A stretch of DNA of 17,075 bases from a virus, in the UHGV virus genome UHGV-2091278; one strand, 5' to 3'. Shown here piece after piece: positions 3,278-16,745 of the stretch. The position numbers and the translations under genes are program-made. A model generated the notes under the pieces. It had not been told where the DNA came from and made no database searches. It saw only the letters and a program-made list of their open reading frames with translations. Numbering within the stretch: position 1 is the stretch's first letter; each line of letters begins with the position of its first letter.

Positions 3278-4174
3278 ATGCCTGCTGTTGACCTTTCCCA
3301 GTTACCGGAACCCGCCATCATCGCGAAGCCTGATTTTGAGGCAATTCTGGCTGACACAAAGGCCATGATGATTGCGTCCTATCCTGCCGAACAGCGTGAA
3401 GCCGTCTCCGCCGCGCTGGAGCTGGAATCGGAACCCCTGAACGTTATCGCCCAGACAACAGCGTTTCGTGAAATGCTGTTACGCCAGCGGGTCAATGAGG
3501 GTGCACGCGCCTGCATGTTAAGCCACAGCGCCGGGACAGACCTGGACAACCTCGCGGGCAATATGAACACAAAGCGCCTGGTTATCACTCCGGCAACGGA
3601 TACCACCGACGCGGTGATGGAAAGCGACACATCGCTGAGACTGCGGGCGCAACGGGCGTATGACGGTCTGAGTGTTGCTGGCCCGTCAGGCGCATACGAG
3701 TATTTTGCACGCAGCGCCAGCGGTCTGGTACGCGACGCGCGAGCCATCAGCCCGTCTCCGGCCAACGTGACGGTTTCCATCCTGTCCACTGAAGGCGACG
3801 GCACAGCAACGGAGGCGTTGCTTAATACCGTTCGCGCCGTTCTGAATGCAGAGGATACCCGCCCGGTGGCCGACCGCCTGACCGTACAGAGCGCCAGAAT
3901 CGTGACATGGCGGCTGAATGCAAAACTGTACTTTTACCCCGGCCCGGAATCCGAACCTATTCTGGCCGCGGCTGAATCGTCGTTCAGGAAGTGGCTGGCT
4001 GAGCAGGGGCTTATCGGTCAGGACGTGGCGTTGTCCGCCATTGCTGCCGCACTGCATGTGCACGGTGTGCAACGCGTGGAGATAATCGAACCCACACAGA
4101 ATATGGCCATCAGCGACATACAGGCGGCGCGCTGTGAGTCATTCACCATCAGCGAAGGTGGACGCAATGAGTAA
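3278..4174 (+). CDS. J: P2 gpJ-like baseplate protein
   Basis: 298 aa; MP..DL.QLP...SEPL...RPVADR.TVQSA...LYFYPGPESEPI... is collinear with P2 gpJ; SD GAGGGA 7 nt upstream. Confidence 0.85.
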   Translation: MPAVDLSQLPEPAIIAKPDFEAILADTKAMMIASYPAEQREAVSAALELESEPLNVIAQTTAFREMLLRQRVNEGARACMLSHSAGTDLDNLAGNMNTKRLVITPATDTTDAVMESDTSLRLRAQRAYDGLSVAGPSGAYEYFARSASGLVRDARAISPSPANVTVSILSTEGDGTATEALLNTVRAVLNAEDTRPVADRLTVQSARIVTWRLNAKLYFYPGPESEPILAAAESSFRKWLAEQGLIGQDVALSAIAAALHVHGVQRVEIIEPTQNMAISDIQAARCESFTISEGGRNE

Positions 4175-4697
4175 TTCGTTGTTACCACCATCAGCCAGCA
4201 ATTTCATGCGTTGTGCCGAAGCCGTCGGAACACGCATTACAGACATTCCGGTAGACCTCAACACGCTGTGGTCGCCGGACACCTGCCCGGTGCATCTGCT
4301 GCCTTATCTCGCCTGGGCGTTTTCCGTTGACCGCTGGGATCGCAACTGGCCGGAAGAGACAAAGCGACAGGTGATTCGTGATGCATGGCTGATACACCGA
4401 CACAAAGGGACCATCAGCGCACTGCGCAGGGCCATTGAGCCGCTGGGATACCTCATTCGCGTGTCTGAGTGGTGGGAGTTCGGCGGAGAACCGGGAACAT
4501 TTACCGTTGAAGTCGGCACGCTGGACAGTGGCGTGACGGAGGAAATGTATCTGGAAATGGAGCGGTTGATTGCTGATGCCCGCCCGGTCAGCCGCCACAT
4601 GACAGGGCTGAATATCATTCAGGAGATCCCGGGGGATATTTTCGCGGCGGCAGCAACTTACGACGGTGAAGTCATTACCATTTATCCGGACGATTAA
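4167..4697 (+). CDS. I: P2 gpI-like baseplate protein
   Basis: Track ORF starts at 4134, but homology to P2 gpI begins at MSNSLLPP (ATG 4167, overlapping the J stop). ...[25 protein letters not shown]...HKGTI...[14 protein letters not shown]... matches gpI. Confidence 0.85.
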
Positions 4698-4699
4698 GC

Positions 4700-6847
4700 A
4701 TGAGTACCACAACACGAAAATTTAAAACCATTATCACTGATACTGGTGCCAAAAAATTAGCTCAGGCTGCCGCGCCAGATGGTAATCCTGTCCGCCTGAC
4801 TCATATGGCCGTGGGCGACGGTGGCGGCACGTTGCCCACACCAGACAGTAAGCAGATCCGTCTGGTGCATGAGGTGTGGCGACATACTGTTAATCGCGTC
4901 ATCCTGGACGCAACACATCAGAACCGCATTATTGCGGAGCTGGTTATTCCTCCTGAAACGGGCGGATTCTGGATCCGGGAAATTGGTGTATTTGATGAGC
5001 ACGGCGATTTGATCGCGGTGGGCAATACTGCCGAAAGTTACAAACCAACCGTTGCCGAAGGATCCGGACGTGCACAAACATTTCGCACCATTCTGACCGT
5101 ATCCAGCACTGCCACCGTGGCGCTTACCGTGGATAACACCATGGTAATGGCCACAGTGGATTACGTGAATGACAAACTGAAAGAACATGAACAGTCACGA
5201 CGTCACCCGGACGCCTCGCTGACCGCAAAAGGCTTTGTTCAACTCAGTAGCGACACTAACAGCGTGTCTGAAACGCAGGCTGCAACGCCGAAAGCAGTAA
5301 AGGCCGCGTATGATCTTGCTAACGGGAAATATACTGCGCAGGATGCCACCACAGCGCGAAAAGGCCTTGTCCAGCTCAGTAGCGCCACCAACAGCGATTC
5401 TGAAACGCTGGCGGCAACACCAATGGCGGTAAAGGCAGCATATGACCTTGCTAACGGGAAATATACTGCGCAGGATGCCACCACAGCGCGGAAAGGCCTT
5501 GTCCAGCTCAGTAGCGCCACCAACAGCACGTCTGAAGCACTGGCCGCAACACCGAAAGCGGTAAAGACAGCATATGACCTTGCTAACGGGAAATATACCG
5601 CTCAGGACGCTACGACAGCACAAAAAGGGATTGTCCAGCTAAGCAGCGCGACTAACAGCACATCTGAAACGCTTGCCGCGACACCGAAAGCAGTGAAAGC
5701 AGCTAATGACAATGCGAATGGTCGGGTACCTTCTGCCCGTAAGGTGAATGGTAAGGCGCTTTCAGCGGATATTACACTGACGCCGAAAGATATTGGTACG
5801 CTTAACTCAACAACTATGTCATTTAGCGGTGGTGCTGGTTGGTTCAAATTAGCAACGGTAACCATGCCGCAGGCGAGTTCTGTTGTTTCAATTACGTTGA
5901 TTGGTGGGGCTGGATATAACGTCGGTTCACCTCAACAGGCAGGTATATCTGAACTTGTTTTGCGTGCAGGTAATGGTAATCCGAAGGGGATTACTGGTGC
6001 TTTATGGCAGCGCACATCGACAGGGTTTACAAATTTTGCCTGGGTCAATACATCTGGTGATACTTACGATATTTACGTTGCAATCGGAAATTATGCGACT
6101 GGTGTAAATATTCAATGGGATTATACCAGTAATGCCAGCGTAACGATTCATACGTCACCAGCATATTCTGCTAATAAGCCGGAAGGGTTAACGGACGGTA
6201 CAGTTTATTCACTCTATACGCCATCAGAGCAGTTTTATCCGCCTGGCGCACCAATCCCGTGGCCATCGGATACCGTTCCGTCTGGTTATGCCCTGATGCA
6301 GGGGCAGACTTTTGACAAATCTGCCTACCCGAAACTTGCAGTCGCTTATCCGTCAGGCGTGATCCCTGATATGCGTGGCTGGACGATTAAGGGCAAGCCC
6401 GCCAGTGGTCGTGCCGTATTGTCTCAGGAACAGGACGGCATTAAATCGCACACCCACAGCGCCAGTGCATCCAGTACGGATTTGGGGACGAAAACCACAT
6501 CGTCGTTTGATTACGGTACTAAAACGACCAGTTCATTTGATTACGGCACAAAAACCACAAATAGCGCAGGAGCTCATTCACACAATATACCTGTTGGTCA
6601 CACTGGCGCGGGGAATGGTGTATCAGCCGGTTATAACGCTGCGTTAGGTACTGGTACCACGTCGAGCGCAGGAGGGCATGCTCACAATGTATATATCGGT
6701 GCCCATAACCACACTATCGGCATTGGTGCTCATGCCCATTCTGTCATTATTGGTCCCCACGGACACACCATCACCGTTAATGCTACGGGGAACGCAGAAA
6801 ACACCGTAAAAAACATCGCATTTAACTATATTGTGAGGCTTGCATAA
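4700..6847 (+). CDS. H: P2 gpH-like tail fibre protein, conserved N-terminal attachment domain, variable repeat-rich shaft and His-rich C-terminal tip
   Basis: 715 aa; N-terminus [23 protein letters not shown]... is typical of P2/Mu/P1-type fibres; internal 44-aa repeats; C-terminal HxH motifs and ...[11 protein letters not shown] terminus. Confidence 0.85.
5225..5720. repeat. Four tandem near-identical 132-bp (44-codon) repeats inside the tail fibre gene
   Basis: Repeat unit KG(F/L/I)[35 protein letters not shown](R/Q); the GGC/GGG phase points 5231, 5363, 5495 and 5627 are exactly 132 nt apart. Confidence 0.85.
6485..6565. repeat. Short 30-bp tandem repeat ([10 protein letters not shown] x ~3) in the fibre distal region
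   Basis: [10 protein letters not shown] repeated consecutively in the translation; nucleotide period 30. Confidence 0.6.
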
Positions 6848-7425
6848 TGACATTCAGAATGAGTGAACAATCACGGACCATAAAAATTTATAATCTACTG
6901 ACCGGAACCAATGAGTTTATTGGTGAAGGTGATGCATACATTCCACCTCATACAGGTCTGCCTGCAAACAGTACCGATATTGCACCACCAGATATTCCGG
7001 CTGGCTTCGTGGCTGTTTTCAACAGTGATGAGGCATCGTGGCATCTCGTTGAAGACCATCGGGGTAAAACTGTTTATGACGTGGCATCAGGGGACGCGTT
7101 ATTTATTTCTGAACTCGGTCCGTTACCGGAAAATGTTACCTGGTTGTCGCCGGATGGAGAGTGTCAGAAGTGGAACGGCACATCCTGGGTGAAAGATGCA
7201 GAAGCAGAAAAACTGTTTCGGGTAAGGGAGGCAGAAGAAACAAAAAACAGCCTGATGCAGGTAGCCAGTGAGCATATTGCGCCACTTCAGGATGCCGTAG
7301 ATTTGGATATTGCGACGGAGGAAGAGGCATCGTTACTGGCTGCATGGAAGACATATCGGGTATTGTTGAATCGTGTTGATACAACAGTAGCAGCGGATGT
7401 TGAGTGGCCAGTCGCCCCACAATAA
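6847..7425 (+). CDS. G: Tail fibre assembly chaperone (P2 gpG / Tfa-like)
   Basis: 192 aa; ATG overlaps H stop (TAATG); protein resembles Tfa/gpG chaperones; sits directly after the fibre gene. Confidence 0.8.
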
Positions 7426-7432
7426 AAAGAAA

Positions 7433-7460
7433 AAGCCATCGACAGAAATATCGATGGCTT
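7433..7460. terminator. Bidirectional intrinsic terminator between convergent G and the acetyltransferase gene
   Basis: Perfect 10-bp stem AAGCCATCGA / TCGATGGCTT with 8-nt loop, A-run upstream (AATAAAAAGAAAA) and TTT downstream. Confidence 0.55.
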
Positions 7461-7468
7461 TATGTACT

Positions 7469-8074
7469 CTATTTATACAATACAACACCACTCTTTTTAG
7501 TTATATATGTGCAGTTTGATGGTATATCTTTATTTATAAAAGACATTGCACCTATTTTTACATTATCCCCAATTTTACGTGATAATCCAATGATGCAACA
7601 ATTAGCTCCGATATCAACGTTACTACCAATTTTCACTCTTGAACCAGGCATGTCACCATCTATCTGCCCAATGGTAGTATTCTGTCGTAATACCAGATTT
7701 TCACCCGCATCAACAGCAAAATGAACAACAATTCCAGCATGATGGGGAATTGTTAACCCTTTTCCAATATTTGCTCCTAATCCTATTTCACAACCAAATT
7801 TGTTAATTATTTTACTGTTTAACTTTTTGGCTGCTTTCTTATGTAATTTATTACCATTAATATACATTTCGTTAGCCAACCGCCACCAGAAAAGGAAATT
7901 CCGGTTACGCTGCTTTTTCTCTCTTAAAAGCCTCCAGATATCCATACGTTTCCGCCGAATTACTTCATGTTTCCAGAAGTTTTTTAAATTAGTAGAGTTC
8001 CCAAATAAAACAAAGTGAATTGCCATTAAGTAGGACAGCACGAAAATCTCCTTAATTATTATTTCAGACCACAC
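7469..8074 (-). CDS. Hexapeptide-repeat (left-handed beta-helix) acyltransferase, serine O-acetyltransferase (CysE/WcaB-like) family; A+T-rich cargo (moron) gene
   Basis: 201 aa; C-terminal ...IGLGANIGKGLTIPHHAGIVV...IGQIDGDMPGSRVKIGSNVDIGANCCIIG...IGDNVKIGAMSFI... is the classic [LIV]G hexapeptide pattern and the DG..G.R.P.IG motif of serine acetyltransferases. Visibly lower GC than flanks. Start uncertain (GTG 8074, ATG 8026 or ATG 7945). Confidence 0.65.
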   Translation of the reverse strand: MWSEIIIKEIFVLSYLMAIHFVLFGNSTNLKNFWKHEVIRRKRMDIWRLLREKKQRNRNFLFWWRLANEMYINGNKLHKKAAKKLNSKIINKFGCEIGLGANIGKGLTIPHHAGIVVHFAVDAGENLVLRQNTTIGQIDGDMPGSRVKIGSNVDIGANCCIIGLSRKIGDNVKIGAMSFINKDIPSNCTYITKKSGVVLYK

Positions 8075-8154
8075 ATGTTATAAGGTTAAGAGATTATAAA
8101 ATCCTGTTATTTGTTATTCAAAAACAATTTTCTGAGAAGGACATACAACAGCAA

Positions 8155-8187
8155 GTCGCCAGTCACCTTCATCAGGAAATTGGCGAC
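8155..8187 (-). terminator. Hairpin downstream of U (possible end of the FI-U transcript)
   Basis: 7-bp inverted repeat GTCGCCA...TGGCGAC with 19-nt loop; no clear U-tract, so weak. Confidence 0.2.
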
Positions 8188-8197
8188 ATACGTTAAA

Positions 8198-8692
8198 TCA
8201 GAGCAGCCCCTTAACTGAGCTGGCCGCGCTGTTAAGGGATGATGTCACCTTATCTTTGAAGCCGGACAACATATCGCTGAACGATGAGGATTGCAGGCGC
8301 TCCCGCAAATCCTCATCACAGCGTTCAAGAGTCAGTGAAAATTCTATCTTTTTCGCCTTACCGTAGCGATCAAACTCGGAGCGGGTCGTATTCGTTTCAG
8401 TCAGTACATACATGCCGTAAATCTGCCCGACGCCATCAATCAGAGGCCAGGGGCATCCTGTATATGCCTGCGTGGTCAACAACGACAGCGACACTTCGCC
8501 ACCTGTAATCTCAGGATAAAGAACACCCGAAAGAACGATGCGATCATCACCTGCACCGATATACTGCCAGCTTGCCGAACGGTTAACGCGTTCATTTTTC
8601 ACATGTCGCCAGCTTTTGTTTTGCTGTAACTGCTGATGCGGCAACGTGCGCAACTCAAAAACAAACATGCCGTAGATCATCATCATGGCCAT
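8198..8692 (-). CDS. U: P2 gpU-like tail protein
   Basis: 164 aa; ...LSGVLYPEITGGEVSLSLL...WPLIDG.G.IYGMYV... parallels P2 gpU; SD GAGGAG overlaps the T stop. Confidence 0.85.
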   Translation of the reverse strand: MAMMMIYGMFVFELRTLPHQQLQQNKSWRHVKNERVNRSASWQYIGAGDDRIVLSGVLYPEITGGEVSLSLLTTQAYTGCPWPLIDGVGQIYGMYVLTETNTTRSEFDRYGKAKKIEFSLTLERCDEDLRERLQSSSFSDMLSGFKDKVTSSLNSAASSVKGLL

Positions 8693-8698
8693 GACTCC

Positions 8699-11515
8699 TC
8701 AATCTTTATCGTAAAAACTGCCACGTCCGGCACGGTCGCGTCGTTCCAATTCTGCCCTGACCATTTCACCGACCAGTTTCGCCAGTTCGCGGGGATTCTG
8801 CGTAACAACGTTATGCAGATGAACATGAATTTCACCGCCAAATCCGGAGGCAACAGGCTCCCGGTTACGGGAAGTTACAGGAACTGATGCCACTGGAGAT
8901 CGTATGGCCTCCGCCACCGGGCGGGAGCTGGCCGCAACAACAGGGACCAGCGCCGGAGGCAGCGGAGCCGGGACCACGGGTGTGATATTAATTGCGGGGG
9001 CAGGCTTACTGACCTGCGCAATCTTCCGCTCCTGCCACTCCCCACGAACAGCAAGTGCGCGGGGCAGGTTTTTAAAGACAATATCGCCGGGGCCAATGCG
9101 TTTTTTCGTCTCCTCAACCAGCTTACCTGTGTTATCAGCAATTTTGCTGAGTCTGCGCAGCGTACCGGTATTGCTGTCTGTGAGCGGTTTATTGTCTTTG
9201 GAGTTATCACCTCCGGTGCCATTGCCATTTTCCACAGGCTTCGGCGGATTGATTTTCGCCAGGTCCCCCTGAAGTAAGGCAACCTTGTCCTGAAGAATGG
9301 CCGCACGCTGTGCGTCTTCGATTTTCTTGCGCGCCCTTTCCGCTTCATCCGGAAGGACGCCAAGTTTTTCAAGTATCCACGCCAGCGTATCCAGTAGCAT
9401 TTTTGCAGGTGTCAGAACAAGTTGTAACGCACCGCCAAGAACGTTACCGAATATCTCGCCAGCACTGGTACATTTATCCAGCGTTTCCTTGCTGGACTCC
9501 ATCGGTGACAACAGCGATTTAAACCAGTTAAACACCTGGCTGATCCCGCTTCCGATTGCGTCAAAAACAGGACCAAACCGTTCAAAGGTTTCGCGCAACG
9601 GGGTCAGCCTTTCCATAATCCCGCTGAACACCCCGGCAAAAAATGCCCTGATGGGATCCCAGTATTTCCAGATGAGAACGGCAGCTCCGGCAAGCGCAGC
9701 CACGATAAGACCGACCGGACTGAACAACGCCCCGATAGCGCCCCCCAGTAACGAAACGGAACCCGTCACCATTCCCCATAGTGCTGGCAGGAGTCTGACA
9801 GCATTCATTGAACCGGTCAGGAGGGAAAAGCCAAGACGCAGTTTTGCCAGCGGGCCAGCAAGCACACCAATAGCCAGCGACAACGAGCCAACCGTTGCAG
9901 TCATTGCCAGCAACGCACCGCCTGCTATCAGTAGCTGGCGCGTCAGTACCGGATGAGCCTGCGCCAGCGAGGTGATTTTTTCAAGCACCCGCGTGAGCCA
10001 CTGCGTGACAGAACGCAGCGGACCGTCAACCAGATCACTGATGCGAATACGAAGACCTTCCCATGCGCTGTCGAGATTTTTCAGGTCCCCATCAAGATTA
10101 TCGGCCATTACTTTTGCAACGCGATCGGCCTCTCCCCTTGCCCCCTGCAATTCTCTGGTCAGTTTTTGCAGCTCTCCTGAACCAGCCGCCGCAACAAGCG
10201 TCTGCAAACCAACGAACGCCTCTTCTCCGGCGATGTCCTTGAAGAAGGAGACCTGGTCCACCTGTCCGTATTTTTGTGTCGCCTTATAGAGATCAAGCAG
10301 CACATCCTCCATCGGGCGCATTTTGCCTCTGGCGTCAGCAACTGACACCCCCAGCTCTTTCAGCGCATCAGCCGCAGCTTTTGGCGGTGATGCAAGGCGG
10401 GACAGACTTGCGCGCATGGCCGTACCAGCATCGCTTCCACGAAGACCATTATTGGCAAGCATCCCGGCCATGGCTGCCGCTTCTTCAAGACTGATACCAA
10501 GTTTTGCGGCAACCGGACCGGTATACTTCATGGTTTCGCCCAGCGCGCGTAAATCAGTATTGGTCCGGGTGAATGCCGCTGTCAGCGTATCGCCAACCCG
10601 GTCCATTTGATCGGCTGTCAGGTTGAACTGTGTGAGGATATTGGAGCCTATATCCGCCGTCTCGCCGAGTTCGACGCCACCTGCCAGCGCCATATTAAGA
10701 ACACCGGGCAATGCGGCCTGAATGGCCTGCGGAGTAAAACCAGCCATTGCCAGAAAGCTCTGCCCACTGGCGGCATCACTCGCAGTAAACTGTGTTTCAG
10801 AACCAAGTTTTAACGCCTGCTCACGCAGCGCCTTAAACTGCGGGCTGTTTTTGTCGATTCGCGTCAGTGCCTGAACGCGGGACATCTCTTTGCCGAACCC
10901 GATCGCAGGCTGCAAAAAACGTCCGGCAGCATAGCCGCCAGCCGCTGCAGCACCAATTGCCAGCGCACCACCTGTTTTCAGTTTTCCCACGGTTTCCTGC
11001 GCGCGCGAATACCGCTCACGCGCCCGCGTTACACGCGCAAGCGCCTGCCGTTCGCGTTCAAGTTGGTTGTTGTACTGTTCGGTGCGTCTGATGGCCTGCT
11101 GGATGGTGTTATCGCTGCCTGTCAGGGAAATGCCGTGGCGTTTCAGCTCTCCGCCAAGTTCCCGCATTTTCTGAATTTCCCGTGTGCGCGATTCATTCAG
11201 GCGTTCAAGCCGGGTGCTTAACTGCTGCATCAGCTTTTGTTGTTTTTCGCTGAGAACTGTACCCGTGCGTTGTAACTGATTAAGTGCGTTAAGCTGGCGT
11301 CGTGCTTTCACGATGCCAGCATCCGCTTTACTGACAGCGTCGCGGGCGCGCTCAAATGAACGCGCCTGACGCTCGAGATTTTTGATCGCCCCCTGCGTTC
11401 GCTGAATGGAGTCACCAAACTGCCCCATCAGGCGGCGGGCGTTTTCGGCAGGCCGGGTCAGCCTGTCAACGGCGCTGAAAGCGACCCGGATGTCAAGAGT
11501 CTTCATTATCTGCAT
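8699..11515 (-). CDS. T: Tail tape measure protein (P2 gpT-like)
   Basis: Very long ORF (up to 947 aa from GTG 11542); coiled-coil-rich N-terminal region, Gly/Ala-rich hydrophobic middle segments, position between E/E' and U. Start most likely ATG 11515 or 11506, overlapping the E' stop. Confidence 0.85.
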   Translation of the reverse strand: MQIMKTLDIRVAFSAVDRLTRPAENARRLMGQFGDSIQRTQGAIKNLERQARSFERARDAVSKADAGIVKARRQLNALNQLQRTGTVLSEKQQKLMQQLSTRLERLNESRTREIQKMRELGGELKRHGISLTGSDNTIQQAIRRTEQYNNQLERERQALARVTRARERYSRAQETVGKLKTGGALAIGAAAAGGYAAGRFLQPAIGFGKEMSRVQALTRIDKNSPQFKALREQALKLGSETQFTASDAASGQSFLAMAGFTPQAIQAALPGVLNMALAGGVELGETADIGSNILTQFNLTADQMDRVGDTLTAAFTRTNTDLRALGETMKYTGPVAAKLGISLEEAAAMAGMLANNGLRGSDAGTAMRASLSRLASPPKAAADALKELGVSVADARGKMRPMEDVLLDLYKATQKYGQVDQVSFFKDIAGEEAFVGLQTLVAAAGSGELQKLTRELQGARGEADRVAKVMADNLDGDLKNLDSAWEGLRIRISDLVDGPLRSVTQWLTRVLEKITSLAQAHPVLTRQLLIAGGALLAMTATVGSLSLAIGVLAGPLAKLRLGFSLLTGSMNAVRLLPALWGMVTGSVSLLGGAIGALFSPVGLIVAALAGAAVLIWKYWDPIRAFFAGVFSGIMERLTPLRETFERFGPVFDAIGSGISQVFNWFKSLLSPMESSKETLDKCTSAGEIFGNVLGGALQLVLTPAKMLLDTLAWILEKLGVLPDEAERARKKIEDAQRAAILQDKVALLQGDLAKINPPKPVENGNGTGGDNSKDNKPLTDSNTGTLRRLSKIADNTGKLVEETKKRIGPGDIVFKNLPRALAVRGEWQERKIAQVSKPAPAINITPVVPAPLPPALVPVVAASSRPVAEAIRSPVASVPVTSRNREPVASGFGGEIHVHLHNVVTQNPRELAKLVGEMVRAELERRDRAGRGSFYDKD

Positions 11516-11761
11516 TCCCGCTGCGAAGTGCCGCCCGCTCACGCCAGCTAACCACTTCGCCGGGCGTCATCATGAAGATTTCGGCGGGCGACCAGTTAAA
11601 AATGGCGGCAATATCCGCCACCAGATCTTCGATGTGCTCAAAGCACACCAGGGTGATTACGCTGCCGTCTCCTGCACGCTCTTCGCGCCAGAGTCTGGCT
11701 CGCTCATAAAATTTACAGCCACAGCGCACAACTGAATAAAATCGCGTGACGACATTTTTTT
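11493..11761 (-). CDS. E': E' segment: -1 frame extension producing the E+E' fusion tail assembly chaperone
   Basis: The -1 frame opens exactly at the A7 run (plus-strand T7, 11755-11761) inside E and stays open to TGA at 11493-11495; the arrangement mirrors P2 E/E+E' and lambda G/GT. Confidence 0.7.
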
Positions 11762-12031
11762 AATCATCACTTCATCCAGTCGTGGCGAGGTCACGCGAGG
11801 CAACAGCGTGAACATGGTATCCGCTTTCAGATTCAGCACATCAGACAGCGACAGACCACGCAGGGATCCCGCCTGCTCAATAGCCCCGGTGATCTCCACA
11901 TATGTGATTTTTTCGGCACCACGCTCAATTGGCCGGGAAAGTTTTACACCACGTTCGACAGCCATATCCTCACCTGCCGTCACATCATCCGCTACGGTGT
12001 TATTCCGGGTTTCAGTATCGATATCTTTCAT
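11657..12031 (-). CDS. E: P2 gpE-like tail assembly chaperone (zero-frame product)
   Basis: 124 aa; located between tube and tape measure genes; SD AGGAG 7 nt upstream of ATG; contains the frameshift site. Confidence 0.8.
   Translation of the reverse strand: MKDIDTETRNNTVADDVTAGEDMAVERGVKLSRPIERGAEKITYVEITGAIEQAGSLRGLSLSDVLNLKADTMFTLLPRVTSPRLDEVMIKKMSSRDFIQLCAVAVNFMSEPDSGAKSVQETAA
11755..11761 (-). other. Putative programmed -1 ribosomal frameshift slippery site (A AAA AAA on the coding strand)
   Basis: A7 homopolymer at E codons ~90-92 (..VMIKKM..); the -1 frame has stop codons immediately upstream and opens at this run. Confidence 0.55.
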
Positions 12032-12086
12032 CAGTTGTCTCCTTTTCAGTCAGAGGCGACGCACTGCGCCGCCTGCATATTACTTA

Positions 12087-12599
12087 TCAGCCAAGCCCAA
12101 GCGCGGAACGAATGCGGTCAGGCACAATGTCCTTGCCGTCCTTCCGGTAGATGTGGTTCAACAGGTCGATTTCCCACAGCGGGCGATCGTTAACGCTAAG
12201 CTTGTAGTAGGTGTTTTTGACAGCGTAAGTGTGTGATGTGGCTTCGCCCTGTTTGGCCTCCCCCATATCAATTTCCGTCACACGCCCGCGCATCTCGATT
12301 TCATACAGATCGCTTTCTGCATCGGTGTAATATTCACCCGCAAAACGCAGCAGCGTGCCGTCAATCGTGCCGCCATACTTAAGGAACAGTGCACGAACAG
12401 CTCCCCCCATGACAAAGCTCGCATCAAGCGCGGAGTCGTCCAGACCGAGATCAATACTTACTGCCCCCATCATGCCACCACCACGATAGCTGTCGGTTTT
12501 GCGCGTCAGTTTGGGCGGCGTGACGGATGTCACTTTACCCACTTCGTTTTCACCATCCACAAACAGCGTAAAAAAGCGAAGATGTTTTGGTACAGCCAT
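12087..12599 (-). CDS. FII: P2 gpFII-like tail tube protein
   Basis: 170 aa; ...TPPKLTRKTDSYRGGGM.G...DLGLDD... matches P2 FII (LPKLTRKLENYRGAGM...DLGLDD); start ATG overlaps the FI stop (TGATG). Confidence 0.9.
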   Translation of the reverse strand: MAVPKHLRFFTLFVDGENEVGKVTSVTPPKLTRKTDSYRGGGMMGAVSIDLGLDDSALDASFVMGGAVRALFLKYGGTIDGTLLRFAGEYYTDAESDLYEIEMRGRVTEIDMGEAKQGEATSHTYAVKNTYYKLSVNDRPLWEIDLLNHIYRKDGKDIVPDRIRSALGLG

Positions 12600-13783
12600 C
12601 AGGCACCTCCCAGCACCGCAAATGCGGGACCAAAGAATTCATCAGTAAACGTCTGGTAAAGCTCCATGTCTTCCAGCGGGGGAACGGGCGTATATTTGTA
12701 GCGAATACGCACACGCCCCTGACGTAAATCCGTGGTGCCGTTATCCACCACGTCATACCAGCACTCCGCGCCAATCAGTTTCCCGGCAGTAACCAGCGAA
12801 TCCAGTTTTGCCCTGATGGCGCTGATAACATCCTTCACGTTCGCAGGCGTCAGTGGACTGTCGATGGTTTCAAACTGCGCTTCCGCAATTGAATCAGCCA
12901 GCACCTGTGCGGTTCGGGTATACACCTCAAAGATGTAGGCGTTCGTTTCCGGTGTGCGGTTGCCCCAGAAGCGGAACCCGTTGCGACGAATAATGGTCGT
13001 GATTTCTTTGTTGTTGAGGCTGTTGGCATCACTGTCTTCGGCCTGTAATGACCAGAACACATGCCTCGACATCCCCAGCACATTTTTAACCGGAACGTTG
13101 GACAGTGATTTGTGCCACCCCTGCTCATGGTCAATGTACGCACGAAGGCCGCACGCATAGGCAGGCGCGGGGAACGTTTCGTTTTTGCCACTTTTCGGGT
13201 TGTAGGCGATGAAGTCCGGCCATAAGAGCATCACCTCACGTTCGTTGAATTTCTGGCGGTAGGTAATCGCCTCAGCCATCGTGTTACAGCCGTGACATGA
13301 GGCATACACAAACGCGCGCAGTTTACCTGCAATCACGCACAGGGATTTTGTTACAGCCTCCGTGTCCAGCTCCGGCGCAGCCAGAATACGCGGACGGTAT
13401 CCGATGCTTTCATCCTGCTCTGCAACAAGCAGCGCATACATCCCCGTATAGCTGCCGTCATCCTCAGAACCACCGATAACCAGTTGATCCTGCGTCTTTC
13501 CGTCTTCTTCTTTGTGTTCAGCCACGCGAACGACGATCACCTTTGTGCTCACCTGGTCTGCGATGGCCTTAAGCGCACGATAAAGCGTCCCCGTTGTTCC
13601 GCATTTTCCCAGCACGTCATTGACGCGGGTCAGCAGTGTGGGCTTGTTCAGCGGGAACAGCTTCGCGTCCGCATCATCCGCCGTTGCCACGATACCGATA
13701 ACGCTGGAATCAACATCGTTAATCGCTGTTACCAGGTCGGTATTTTCCGTAACACGGGCACCATGAAAACGAGTTTCACTCAT
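12599..13783 (-). CDS. FI: P2 gpFI-like contractile tail sheath protein
   Basis: 394 aa; ...FPLNKP...KLRAF.Y....C.T..E...YRQ.F..RE.M..WPDF...EQGWHK.LSNV...FRFWGNRT...YTRTAQV..D...YTPVPPLE... is diagnostic of the P2 sheath family. Confidence 0.9.
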   Translation of the reverse strand: MSETRFHGARVTENTDLVTAINDVDSSVIGIVATADDADAKLFPLNKPTLLTRVNDVLGKCGTTGTLYRALKAIADQVSTKVIVVRVAEHKEEDGKTQDQLVIGGSEDDGSYTGMYALLVAEQDESIGYRPRILAAPELDTEAVTKSLCVIAGKLRAFVYASCHGCNTMAEAITYRQKFNEREVMLLWPDFIAYNPKSGKNETFPAPAYACGLRAYIDHEQGWHKSLSNVPVKNVLGMSRHVFWSLQAEDSDANSLNNKEITTIIRRNGFRFWGNRTPETNAYIFEVYTRTAQVLADSIAEAQFETIDSPLTPANVKDVISAIRAKLDSLVTAGKLIGAECWYDVVDNGTTDLRQGRVRIRYKYTPVPPLEDMELYQTFTDEFFGPAFAVLGGA

Positions 13784-13940
13784 AGCTTCAGCCCCTTGTA
13801 TCCGTTAAATGATTCGGCAACAATCATCACCCACCACGCGCGTAATCTCACCCCTGCGCTATTCTCCCGCCACGGCGACAACAAAAAGCAGTACCCCCCT
13901 CCGCACGCACATGCGACCATGCCGTACAGGGAGGGAACAG
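13784..13940. promoter_or_regulatory. Divergent intergenic region expected to hold the late promoters for the FI operon (-) and D (+)
   Basis: 157-bp non-coding gap between divergently oriented start codons; no specific Ogr-box could be confidently recognised by eye. Confidence 0.3.
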
Positions 13941-15050
13941 ATGACCGACACCACCATGCAATTGCTCAGTCAGGGCACAGACCCCGTGAAAATGCCGGAT
14001 TTTGATATTCTCGCCGAGGGTAAAACGCTGTCCGGCGTGGCAGAACGCCTGATGAGCCTGTCACTGACCGACAACCGGGGATTTGAGGCGGACCAGCTCA
14101 CCATCACGCTGGATGATGCCGATGGCCAGTTGCAGCTACCGCCACGGGGCGCGCGCCTGACGGTTCTCATTGGCTGGAAAGGGGAACCGCTGACAGAAAA
14201 AGGCACTTACATTGTTGATGAAATCGCTCACGAAGGACCGCCGGACAGGCTGACTGTTTCAGCCAGAAGCGCAGATTTTCGGGATGAATTTAATGTTAAA
14301 CGTGAGGCGTCCTGGCATGATGTGACCGTTGAACGTGTGGTATCCGCCATCGCTCATCGGTACGGCCTGAAACCGCAAATCAGCGAAATGCTGATGGATA
14401 TCGAAATCGACCACGCCGACCAGACTGAAGAAAGCGACATGTCCTTCCTTACGCGCATGGCGGAAATGCTGGGCGCAATCACCACGGTAAAAAGCGGTAA
14501 TCTGTTATTCATCATGCCCGGCGGTGGCGTGAACGCACAGGGCCAGCCGTTGCCATCGTTCGCCATCACACGCAGCAGCGGCGATCGCCATCAGTTCCGC
14601 ATTGCTGACCGCGAGGCGTATACGGGGGTACGCGCTTACTGGCTTGATCTTAATTACGGGAAAAAGAAAAAAGTCAGCGTGAAACGCCGCAAACCGCCAA
14701 AACCCAAAAAGGAGAAAAGCAGCAGCCGTGAAGGTGATTATATGGAAGGCGCGGAAGGCAATGTGTTTGTGTTACGCAAGACTTATCAGAACGAGCAGGC
14801 AGCAAGACGCGCAGCGGCGGCAAAGTGGCAGCAGCTACAACGCGGAGCCGCATCATTCTCCATCACACTGGCACGCGGACGCGCAGAACTCTACCCCGAA
14901 ATGCATGGCACGGTAACAGGATTTAAAAGCGAGATTGATAATCAGGACTGGATTATTGCAAAATCCGAGCACACCATTGATAACAGCGGCTTTACCACGC
15001 AGCTTGAGCTTGAAGCAAAAATTCCGGAATGGATAGCAGAAACAGAATGA
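13941..15050 (+). CDS. D: P2 gpD-like tail protein
   Basis: Track ORF starts at 13809, but homology to P2 gpD begins at MTDTTMQLLSQGTDPV...; ATG 13941 has GGGAGGGAA SD upstream. ...DNRGF.ADQLT.TLDDADG...YIVDEIAH.G.PD.LTV.ARSADFR..., the basic KK-rich stretch and ...SGFTT.LELE... are all gpD-like. Confidence 0.85.
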   Translation: MTDTTMQLLSQGTDPVKMPDFDILAEGKTLSGVAERLMSLSLTDNRGFEADQLTITLDDADGQLQLPPRGARLTVLIGWKGEPLTEKGTYIVDEIAHEGPPDRLTVSARSADFRDEFNVKREASWHDVTVERVVSAIAHRYGLKPQISEMLMDIEIDHADQTEESDMSFLTRMAEMLGAITTVKSGNLLFIMPGGGVNAQGQPLPSFAITRSSGDRHQFRIADREAYTGVRAYWLDLNYGKKKKVSVKRRKPPKPKKEKSSSREGDYMEGAEGNVFVLRKTYQNEQAARRAAAAKWQQLQRGAASFSITLARGRAELYPEMHGTVTGFKSEIDNQDWIIAKSEHTIDNSGFTTQLELEAKIPEWIAETE

Positions 15051-15106
15051 GTAAATTAGATGCATTAGCTCAGTCATGAGTTTACTGATTACGTACGGCA
15101 CAGAAG

Positions 15107-15141
15107 CAAACCTGATAGTTTGCTCTGTGCCAGAAACGGAC
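15107..15141. terminator. Long imperfect inverted repeat between convergent D and the DUF2971-like gene
   Basis: GGCACAGAAGCAAA ... TTTGCTCTGTGCC (about 13 bp stem, one bulge, 8-nt loop); no adjacent U-tract, so function uncertain. Confidence 0.25.
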
Positions 15142-15172
15142 ATTGCCGACATCATAATCGACACAAATTACA

Positions 15173-16036
15173 TTAATCACCTATGTGATTACGTTCTATA
15201 TATCTTACAATCTTCTCTAAAGATTCAACCCCCCACCTCTGCATAGCATGCGGGGATTCTGTATATTCATAATCTTCTATGGTGAGATCCCATGTACTTT
15301 TCTTGAATTCACACTGATATAATCGCACAGTCTTGTTTAAAACCAACCCTTCTAACACACTGCTTTTCTTAATGATTTTGTCAATGTCTTTATTGTTAAT
15401 CCCAATGTAGATAGCTGTTACCGAACTTAAATCAGTTATCTTGTCAATTAAAATATTTTCTTGCTTTTGTAATAGCCCCACTCGCTTTATTATTCTAACT
15501 TCTTCTTCATATTTCCAATGCAATGATTTAGTAAGCAATAATTTACTAATTACATCAGCGCTATAAATGTTTTCTTGACTGATTTTTAGTTTGCTTTTTA
15601 TTCGACTCTCTAAATAATTAATGTCACCTTTCTGTGCCGTAATTAGGCATTTTTCTTCATCATCAAACCCTGCCCTTTCTGTGTCAATTGCTACAACAAA
15701 CCCCTGATGTTTATCAGCATAATGTGACCACATCAGTACATTGAGAGGATTTTTAGAAAGGCATAAGCAGGCAACATTTTGATTGATCTCCCCCCTCATA
15801 GCTAATGGTTCAAGCGATTCACCATCTAATGAAAGTTCATAGCCATAGCTTTCAAAAGGATCATTAAACTCACTATATGGAGTGAATTTTATAGAGATGT
15901 AACCATCTTTAAAAAATCGTTCCAATGATGTCTTATCTATATATTTATACAGAATCATAATATATTCAGAATTAATTATAGGTGTTATCAGTATACAGTA
16001 CTTCAACAAGTAGATGTAAAGATCCCATTTAAACAT
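15173..16036 (-). CDS. DUF2971-family-like protein of unknown function; A+T-rich cargo gene inserted between D and ogr
   Basis: 287 aa; ...ILYKYIDKTSLERFF.DGYI..KFTPYSEFNDPFES... and ...LMWSHYADKHQGFVVAID... resemble the conserved N-terminal motifs I associate with DUF2971. Strong SD GAGGAGGA directly before ATG 16036; visibly low GC. Confidence 0.6.
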   Translation of the reverse strand: MFKWDLYIYLLKYCILITPIINSEYIMILYKYIDKTSLERFFKDGYISIKFTPYSEFNDPFESYGYELSLDGESLEPLAMRGEINQNVACLCLSKNPLNVLMWSHYADKHQGFVVAIDTERAGFDDEEKCLITAQKGDINYLESRIKSKLKISQENIYSADVISKLLLTKSLHWKYEEEVRIIKRVGLLQKQENILIDKITDLSSVTAIYIGINNKDIDKIIKKSSVLEGLVLNKTVRLYQCEFKKSTWDLTIEDYEYTESPHAMQRWGVESLEKIVRYIERNHIGD

Positions 16037-16153
16037 TCCTCCTCAATACGCGGATTAAACAAATTAAAGCATCTTACTCAAAATGGACCATCAGTTGGAT
16101 TTAGAGCCAACACAACCTAGAATAGCGGCAGCACCACGTTAAGGGAGGTCGCT

Positions 16154-16474: not shown

Positions 16475-16738
16475 ATGGTCGGAGGGAATACCCGAAGGCC
16501 AGATGTGGAAAGGCCCCGGAAAACATCTCTGTTTAACCGAGGCCCTAACCGCATTACCTTGACAAGTGAAAGGTTAGCGCCTCTCCGGAAAAGGAGCAAG
16601 TGCTATGTCGCAAAAATCGCTTACGGCCATCACGTTCTGCGTGACGGCAATCCTCATCATCTGGATGCTGCACGGTTCGCTGTGCGAAATACGGATGAGC
16701 TTCTGGGGAGCGGAGTTTGCGGCGTTCTTACAGTGTAA
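16475..16738 (+). CDS. mok-like overlapping reading frame (possible translational coupling ORF for the hok-like toxin)
   Basis: 87-codon ORF in a different frame that starts upstream of and overlaps almost all of the hok-like ORF, as mok does in hok/sok loci. Confidence 0.3.
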   Translation: MVGGNTRRPDVERPRKTSLFNRGPNRITLTSERLAPLRKRSKCYVAKIAYGHHVLRDGNPHHLDAARFAVRNTDELLGSGVCGVLTV

Positions 16739-16745
16739 GCAGTAA
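16605..16745 (+). CDS. Hok/Gef-family type I toxin (small membrane peptide)
   Basis: 46-aa ORF MSQKSLTAITFCVTAILIIWMLHGSLCEIRMSFWGAEFAAFLQCKQ, too short for the ORF track. Hydrophobic TM segment then SLCEIR...E.AAF, the Hok signature (Hok: ...RKSLCEIRYRDGHREVAAF...). SD AAGGAG 8 nt upstream. Confidence 0.7.
   Translation: MSQKSLTAITFCVTAILIIWMLHGSLCEIRMSFWGAEFAAFLQCKQ

Follow-up and report, generated by a model that had tools for sequence, protein, structure and literature searches.

Phage-borne O-acetyltransferases of the left-handed beta-helix (LbH) fold are a known kind of cargo, as are the accessory genes ('morons') that cause lysogenic conversion. Enzymes of this fold are normally trimers. 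NeuO of prophage CUS-3 is an LbH O-acetyltransferase of K1 polysialic acid, and its gene lies beside the receptor-binding protein gene. WcaB is a sugar O-acetyltransferase acting on a lipid-linked colanic-acid intermediate, and according to the K-12 annotation the Wca acetyl groups sit on colanic-acid repeat sugars linked to undecaprenyl diphosphate. In phage P2, gene G is followed by a terminator and by fun(Z) on the opposite strand, a nonessential cargo gene of 1587 nt that blocks T5. The phage O-antigen acetyltransferases Oac and OafA, which bring about lysogenic conversion by glycan O-acetylation, are integral membrane acyltransferase-3 (AT3) proteins that act during or after export (PMC9558356). 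The virus genome UHGV-2091278, analyzed here over a stretch of 17,075 nt (the window), represents the late region of a P2-family prophage and carries at positions 7469 to 8041 on the minus strand a gene annotated as serine acetyltransferase. This gene is a real, common, selected and mis-named cargo gene of phages and plasmids, and its product is very probably a mobile accessory LbH acetyltransferase that is not CysE. The best overall explanation, to which a probability of about 45% is assigned, is that it is a sugar O-acetyltransferase expressed in the lysogen, where it would modify a conserved envelope glycan.

Like NeuO, the protein is predicted to be a cytoplasmic LbH O-acetyltransferase carried as prophage cargo next to a receptor-binding gene. 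It differs from NeuO in belonging to another LbH branch (30.5 bits with the NeuD model, against a cut-off of 160.8), in a host range that is not capsule-specific and in lacking the 5' tandem heptanucleotide repeats. As no tandem repeats were found in positions 7300-8300, phase variation was rejected. With fun(Z) the gene shares its place and direction, both being convergent with G and next to a terminator, and its nature as nonessential cargo, so that the assignment to the P2 Z/fun slot made by an earlier sequence-only reading of the window holds; the two proteins are unrelated and show no homology. The outcome proposed here would be that of Oac and OafA. Unlike these membrane proteins, the product is a predicted soluble LbH enzyme and would therefore have to act on cytoplasmic precursors.

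The 190-aa product is identical to the PGAP protein WP_000954202.1, and a 201-aa open reading frame extending to position 8074 is merely the longest possible reading. When the 185 aa from the ATG at codon 6 were used as query, PHROG 2154 was matched over its full length (1.9e-87; residues 8-185 of 185 against profile positions 3-181 of 185). The NCBIfam models gave the best scores for EpsC (2.9e-21, 75.9 bits against a cut-off of 150), CysE TIGR01172 (7.4e-17, 61.8 against 210.65) and the two WcaB models TIGR04016 and NF007564 (7e-15, 54.0 and 54.8 against 194.65 and 196); the second CysE model, NF008349, gave 36.9 bits against 397. LacA and Maa, which are also LbH enzymes, were matched only weakly, and Pfam Hexapep scored 24.2 bits, just below its cut-off of 27. 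Hexapeptide repeats in a six-residue register are visible from residue 85. In a sequence search of the PDB the best solved matches were serine acetyltransferases (1e-12), which were also the top Foldseek matches of an AlphaFold2 (AF2) model with TM values up to 0.69. The AF2 monomer has five N-terminal helices with pLDDT above 90. The repeats, together with the homology to solved LbH enzymes, place the protein in the LbH acyltransferase superfamily. Since the NCBIfam scores are best for EpsC, CysE and WcaB, yet all below cut-off, classification by hidden Markov models (HMMs) puts the protein in the CysE/WcaB/EpsC branch and in none of the named families. This bears out the CysE/WcaB-type homology proposed by the sequence-only reading; the motif 'DG..G.R.P.IG' given with it is absent, as the actual sequence, IDGDMPGSRVKIG, has no proline and is the most variable part of the family. 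Only 66 clusters (50% identity, E<=1e-30) were found among 1.84 billion representatives, and the family is therefore small and tight, although it grades into a large cloud of short proteins resembling serine acetyltransferases.

The acceptor was assessed with an alignment of 38 family members and E. coli CysE, whose sequence is identical to that of 1T3D. Based on the 1T3D and H. influenzae structures, we take Asp143 and His158 of CysE to be the catalytic dyad and Asp92, Asp157, Arg192 and His193 to be its serine-binding residues. His158 corresponds to H100 of the window protein and is a histidine in 37 of the 38 members, and Asp143 corresponds to E85, with Asp or Glu in all 38. The protein thus shares with CysE the fold, the catalytic histidine and its acidic partner, and appears active-looking by these residues. 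The serine-binding residues, in contrast, are not kept. A proline takes the place of Asp157, at a position where the residues of the family vary and are not acidic, Arg192 and His193 map to the loop that varies most (residues 126-135), and the Asp92 region is absent. No SATase_N domain was detected in a Pfam search of the protein, and its C-terminus (...GVVLYK) lacks the isoleucine tail that binds CysK. Taken at its word, the annotation 'serine (O-)acetyltransferase', which PGAP applies in hundreds of genomes, would mean a genuine, feedback-insensitive enzyme that boosts the supply of O-acetylserine and cysteine for phage or host. The solved-structure matches agree with such a role, but the lost residues and domains, the scores far below both CysE cut-offs and the closer relationship to WcaB speak against it, and we regard this explanation, like L-serine as the acceptor, as very unlikely. 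A housekeeping cysE paralogue in host DNA between two separate elements was rejected, because the gene lies inside one contiguous P2-family prophage and occurs in phage records and in PHROG 2154.

Among the E. coli enzymes compared, WcaB is the nearest. With the family HMM, WcaB reaches 95 bits, CysE 70 and WcaF 26, and a pairwise comparison with WcaB gives 35% identity over 109 aa (E 4e-15), which covers the whole catalytic domain. Both proteins are short LbH enzymes of the CysE branch with a glutamate at the position of CysE Asp143. They have the E-I and T-I-x-H-H motifs in common, and in each the chain stops directly behind the beta-helix, without a CysK-binding tail. The window protein differs in its longer N-terminal bundle of about 82 aa, which comprises five helices and an invariant FWWR motif, and in being a phage protein of mobile elements, encoded here in a prophage tail region and not in a wca/cps cluster. 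A sugar is plausibly the acceptor, as judged from this relationship. The idea of the sequence-only reading that a surface polysaccharide is modified gains indirect support from the loss of the serine-binding residues, the retained catalytic dyad and the proximity to WcaB.

The gene, its neighbors and the signals around them have the following positions in the window:

5791 to 6846, plus strand: C-terminal half of the tail fiber gene, part of a 2.24-kb cassette with 93% nucleotide identity to phage-plasmid JL22 over 5791-8032
6847 to 7425, plus strand: tfa (gene G), tail fiber assembly protein gene, the conserved convergent neighbor (Pfam Caudo_TAP, 3.5e-40)
7426 to 8197, no strand: A+T-rich cargo island of 772 nt from the tfa stop to the gpU stop, delimited by G+C content and a break in homology to phage P88
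7432 to 7461, no strand: terminator hairpin of 13 bp common to the convergent tfa and acetyltransferase genes, assessed by folding energy against shuffled sequences
7469 to 8041, minus strand: acetyltransferase gene, 190 aa, GTG start, PHROG 2154, PGAP 'serine acetyltransferase'
8048 to 8053, minus strand: Shine-Dalgarno sequence AAGGAG, 6 nt before the GTG, read from the sequence
8093 to 8121, minus strand: sigma-70-like candidate promoter, TTGAAT-17 nt-TATAAT (10 of 12 positions as in the consensus), some 50 nt upstream of the start
8151 to 8191, minus strand: hairpin just past the gpU stop and upstream of the candidate promoter (-19.8 kcal/mol, z -4.9, poor U-tract)
8198 to 8692, minus strand: gpU, last gene of the inverted tail operon and upstream same-strand neighbor (Phage_P2_GpU, 3e-38; annotated in strain A1)

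The gene travels with the 3' end of tfa, and often with the C-terminus of the fiber gene, among P2-like, P1-like and other myoviruses. At a threshold of about 83% nucleotide identity or more, 530 of 5426 complete E. coli genomes carry the allele, O157:H7 and O111:H8 strains among them, and 66 copies lie on plasmids. Of 575 E. coli records, 573 have the same tfa contiguous with the gene. The 2.24 kb comprising the C-terminal half of the fiber gene, tfa and the acetyltransferase gene recur in the P1-like phage-plasmid JL22, and there this stretch sits inside the invertible C-segment. A non-P2 myovirus prophage near torT has positions 6245-8123 of the window in common. More distant relatives are likewise convergent with tfa in P2-like prophages bearing a 70% allele and in the phages phiNP of Citrobacter (44% amino acid identity), yong2 of Hafnia (36%) and 613R2 (35%). 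In a sample of 80 IMG/VR loci, all of those with at least 85% identity and enough room to show it have a convergent tfa about 50 nt away; at 45-71% identity 12 of 20 are directly convergent with tfa, and two more have tfa within 2 kb. The identities of tfa and acetyltransferase to the window follow the same rank order (97/99, 95/93, 94/92, 86/70, 57/44 and 48/36), which points to long co-inheritance.

Such a neighborhood could also reflect a role in virion assembly, for instance acetylation of the fiber or of its chaperone. The gene adjoins tfa, lies downstream of the tail operon on the same strand, and the hairpin between them is weak enough to make late read-through possible; distant LbH homologues are found inside late operons of virulent Streptococcus thermophilus phages. 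However, the same tfa type (tfaQ/tfaR-like) is present in 4678 genomes, mostly without the acetyltransferase gene, which occurs in only 530, both P88 and P2 lack the gene, and homologues reside on plasmids without fibers. This makes an assembly function the least probable of the explanations considered.

The distant homologues just mentioned share 36-40% identity over the beta-helix only and occur in two Gram-positive phage contexts (loci L112, 4815-5294, and L113, 3902-4318). One is directly after receptor-binding or tail genes in the late operons of the 987-group of S. thermophilus phages, and the second lies beside attP of a Staphylococcus phage. Their positions hint at an association that recurs more widely.

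The gene is under purifying selection. Pairwise dN/dS values for the alleles of the window, O157:H7, the P1-like phage, another prophage and a 70% allele range from 0.02 to 0.14 for the acetyltransferase, comparable to the 0.09 to 0.22 obtained for tfa. In O157:H7 strain TR01 (locus L017, 8427-15725) a 99% identical acetyltransferase gene is intact within a heavily degraded P2-like remnant, in which the head and baseplate genes are replaced by insertion sequences (IS) and the tape-measure gene is frameshifted. The 70% allele P0007 (locus L020, 3501-4070, against window 7469-8041) is an intragenic mosaic. Both ends match the window allele exactly, and the center with the variable loop is similar to the P0030 allele, which occurs at prophage ends. 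The same or nearly identical alleles occur in O157, O111, O39 and other O serogroup backgrounds.

The island itself has the properties expected of a moron, with a distinct composition, a promoter-like site and a terminator of its own, and it is missing from P88 and P2. Its G+C content is 0.342, compared with 0.544 in both flanks, and the acetyltransferase gene is its only credible gene, convergent with tfa/G and downstream of gpU on the same strand. Both the A+T-rich island and the single gene opposite to G had been recognized from the sequence. The prophage of E. coli strain A1, inserted beside ihfA/pheT, is 99.9% identical across window positions 4000-9000, and the backbone matches phage P88 (Xuanwuvirus), in which the FI-FII-E-T-U tail operon is also inverted relative to P2. 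Homology to P88 stops at 5566 and returns from 8192. The gene is thus cargo, as the sequence-only reading supposed, since it is inside one contiguous prophage, present in deposited phage genomes and in PHROG 2154, and missing from P88. The site at 8093-8121 is promoter-like by consensus match, and the hairpin at 8151-8191 may weakly terminate the tail operon. The hairpin at 7432-7461 reaches -19.4 kcal/mol when folded as the minus strand and -16.1 as the plus strand (z about -6.5; none of 200 shuffled sequences folded as well). A hairpin on both strands, previously described as a perfect bidirectional terminator, is therefore real, but it is asymmetric, as the acetyltransferase transcript has a good U-tract (UUUUUCUUUUU) and that of tfa a weak one (UUUAUGU).

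A regulatory RNA in the island was rejected, as Rfam elements are absent from it and the sole match in the window, RF02111 'IS009' (193 bits, 7190-7388, plus strand), falls wholly within the 3' portion of the tfa coding region. This position suggests that the 'sRNA' family IS009 was built on tfa gene or remnant sequence. A relic of an invertible segment was also rejected, because the locus is without a Gin/Cin-type crossover site and convincing flanking inverted repeats.

Outside the island, the tail fiber contains Phage_fiber_2 and Collar domains. Internal direct repeats of about 132 nt, 79-84% identical, at 5227-5721 represent the Phage_fiber_2 repeats, and HxH motifs are abundant in the fiber tip (6245-6844). 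Compared with P2, the FI-FII-E-T-U operon (8198-13783, minus strand) is inverted, and gpD (13809-15050, plus strand) stands alone on its strand, divergent from FI; the annotation of strain A1 contains only a shorter coding sequence and a pseudogene fragment for gpD.

Several observations weigh against the view that a sugar of the envelope, and in particular the receptor of the adjacent fiber, is the target. The protein scores far below the cut-off of the WcaB models, and AF2 confidence in the LbH part is low (pLDDT 53-65). Relatives of 50-64% identity occur without a fiber gene nearby. One of 57% lies at a prophage end beside a hok/gef gene and the host gene copA, one of 64% adjoins an integrase, one of 50% is found among IS elements on virulence plasmids, and those of 53-56% reside on IncI1/B/O/K/Z plasmids, with a toxin-antitoxin pair on one side and a ProQ/FinO gene near repA on the other. 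Acetyltransferase alleles of 98-99% identity adjoin fiber tips of 70-100% identity, which indicates that the enzyme is not tightly matched to one receptor-binding tip; a strict co-variation with the tip was not found. The slot after tfa also accepts unrelated cargo, namely a methyltransferase dependent on S-adenosylmethionine (SAM), fun(Z) in P2 and invertible segments, so that adjacency to tfa may reflect a permissive site and recombination instead of function. Finally, searches of the accessible literature by accession, PHROG identifier and keywords returned no functional study of the acetyltransferase and no phenotype.

The occupants of this slot vary among prophages. It holds an alternative tail-fiber/tfa segment with a DNA invertase in P88, which is the named reference phage of prophages of this type. 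In other prophages (loci L019, 4640-5308, and L020, 4437-5105) a 222-aa class I SAM-dependent methyltransferase, which has no NCBIfam match, is encoded at the same position and is convergent with tfa. At some loci methyltransferase and acetyltransferase genes occur together with a tfa fragment between them, an arrangement which suggests that the slot stacks small modifying enzymes, each with its own piece of tfa.

The homologues on plasmids of the IncI complex (loci L028, 5934-6521; L030, 4966-5556; L026, 2091-2681) represent a conserved accessory gene, accompanied by a toxin-antitoxin pair that is YacAB or of the ParE type. At the inspected loci no conserved partner gene was found beyond tfa in the phages and the toxin-antitoxin pair with ProQ/FinO in these plasmids. 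In total 229 plasmids, of which 151 are conjugative, carry a relative. This promiscuous single-gene distribution over prophages, islands and plasmids, often near toxin-antitoxin and colicin immunity or lysis genes, would suit an enzyme that detoxifies or modifies a small molecule such as an antibiotic, a bacteriocin, a toxic sugar or a metabolite, with a benefit to the host unrelated to phage receptors. The weak LacA and Maa matches and the hypervariable acceptor loop are in line with such a role. However, none of the xenobiotic or antibiotic LbH acetyltransferase families in NCBIfam is significantly matched, the nearest enzymes are WcaB, EpsC and CysE and not LacA or Maa, and the strong and old synteny with tfa in phages would remain without explanation. 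We therefore consider modification of a small molecule unlikely.

The position equivalent to that of fun(Z) also raises the question of anti-phage defense without masking, in which the enzyme would act as an exclusion effector, with a protein or nucleic acid of phage or host as a possible acetylation target, in parallel to fun(Z), old and tin of P2. Relatives at the att-proximal prophage end beside hok/gef fit such a role, as does a second cargo island in the same prophage that includes a defense candidate. We know of no defense effector or toxin of the LbH fold, however, and the acetylating toxins known to us have the GNAT fold. The toxin or defense effector proposed by the sequence-only reading is likewise disfavored by the search of PADLOC-DB 2.0, in which no family matched the acetyltransferase at E<=1, and by the homologous islands, whose inspection revealed no conserved partner apart from tfa in phages. 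Neither the P2/P4 hotspot papers nor one supplement mentions the acetyltransferase. A defense system was rejected as a candidate on these grounds, and an effector of this kind is judged quite improbable.

The second A+T-rich island (15051-16153, G+C 0.35) lies between gpD and ogr. Its one gene (15173-16036, minus strand) encodes a DUF2971 protein that matches the PADLOC phage-defense candidate PDC-S31 at 4.1e-27 and is therefore probably a defense cargo gene. A toxin gene of the hok/gef family follows ogr at the prophage end, at about 16605-16745 of the window (plus strand) as placed by correspondence with locus L001, 29306-29446. In other prophages the 57% acetyltransferase relative is located directly after such a hok/gef gene.

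Each of the four alternative functions discussed above is less supported than sugar O-acetylation. According to this preferred explanation, the gene is a self-contained moron that occupies the post-tfa slot of a P2-family prophage resembling P88 (Xuanwuvirus), and in the lysogen it would be transcribed from its own predicted promoter. Its product would be a soluble, acetyl-CoA-dependent LbH acetyltransferase which, like WcaB, O-acetylates a sugar hydroxyl on a lipid- or nucleotide-linked precursor of an envelope glycan at the cytoplasmic face of the inner membrane. That the acceptor is an envelope glycan is put at a little short of even odds. Near-identical alleles are found in O157, O111 and O39 strains; the acceptor should therefore be a conserved glycan, such as the lipopolysaccharide (LPS) core, enterobacterial common antigen (ECA) or colanic acid, and not one particular O-antigen. 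The outcome would be an altered surface of the lysogen, that is lysogenic conversion, maybe with less adsorption of phages or pili that read this glycan.

Whether receptor masking is the effect under selection is more doubtful. Co-travel with tfa and the fiber C-terminus is compatible with such a role but no proof of it, and the relatives on plasmids and at att sites and the variable fiber tips suggest that the benefit is not tied to one fiber. The masking suggested by the sequence-only reading is thus weakened where it would be matched to the phage's own fiber, by the occurrence of the same allele beside tips of 70-100% identity, and survives in a more general form as a somewhat unlikely selected effect. 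A more specific version, held to be distinctly unlikely, is that fiber C-terminus, Tfa and acetyltransferase form a portable 'recognise-and-mask' module. A phage that gains a new receptor-binding tip by recombination would then also gain an enzyme that acetylates the conserved glycan receptor of this tip, for instance the LPS core, and immediate superinfection exclusion would result. The homologues of the IncI-complex plasmids would act likewise against LPS-reading PilV pili or phages. If this version is true, the acetylation of LPS core or ECA by a cytoplasmic LbH enzyme would constitute a new modification of the envelope in E. coli.

The authors describing JL22 stated that it is unknown why the gene is present (PMC9603915), and in a study of Citrobacter rodentium prophages it is listed only as a 'fitness' gene (PMC6456863). 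Roughly a tenth of the complete E. coli genomes carry it under the misleading name 'serine acetyltransferase', and relatives are present on many conjugative plasmids. Whatever its acceptor, an apt annotation is 'LbH acetyltransferase, WcaB/CysE-like' and not CysE. If the conserved-glycan explanation does not hold, the gene is one more uncharacterized moron in a known cargo slot. If it is true, the gene would bring about a widespread and overlooked modification of the surface, with a bearing on the host range of phages, on phage therapy, on serology and possibly on conjugation, and receptor-binding cassettes would be shown to be able to move together with a modifier of the receptor.

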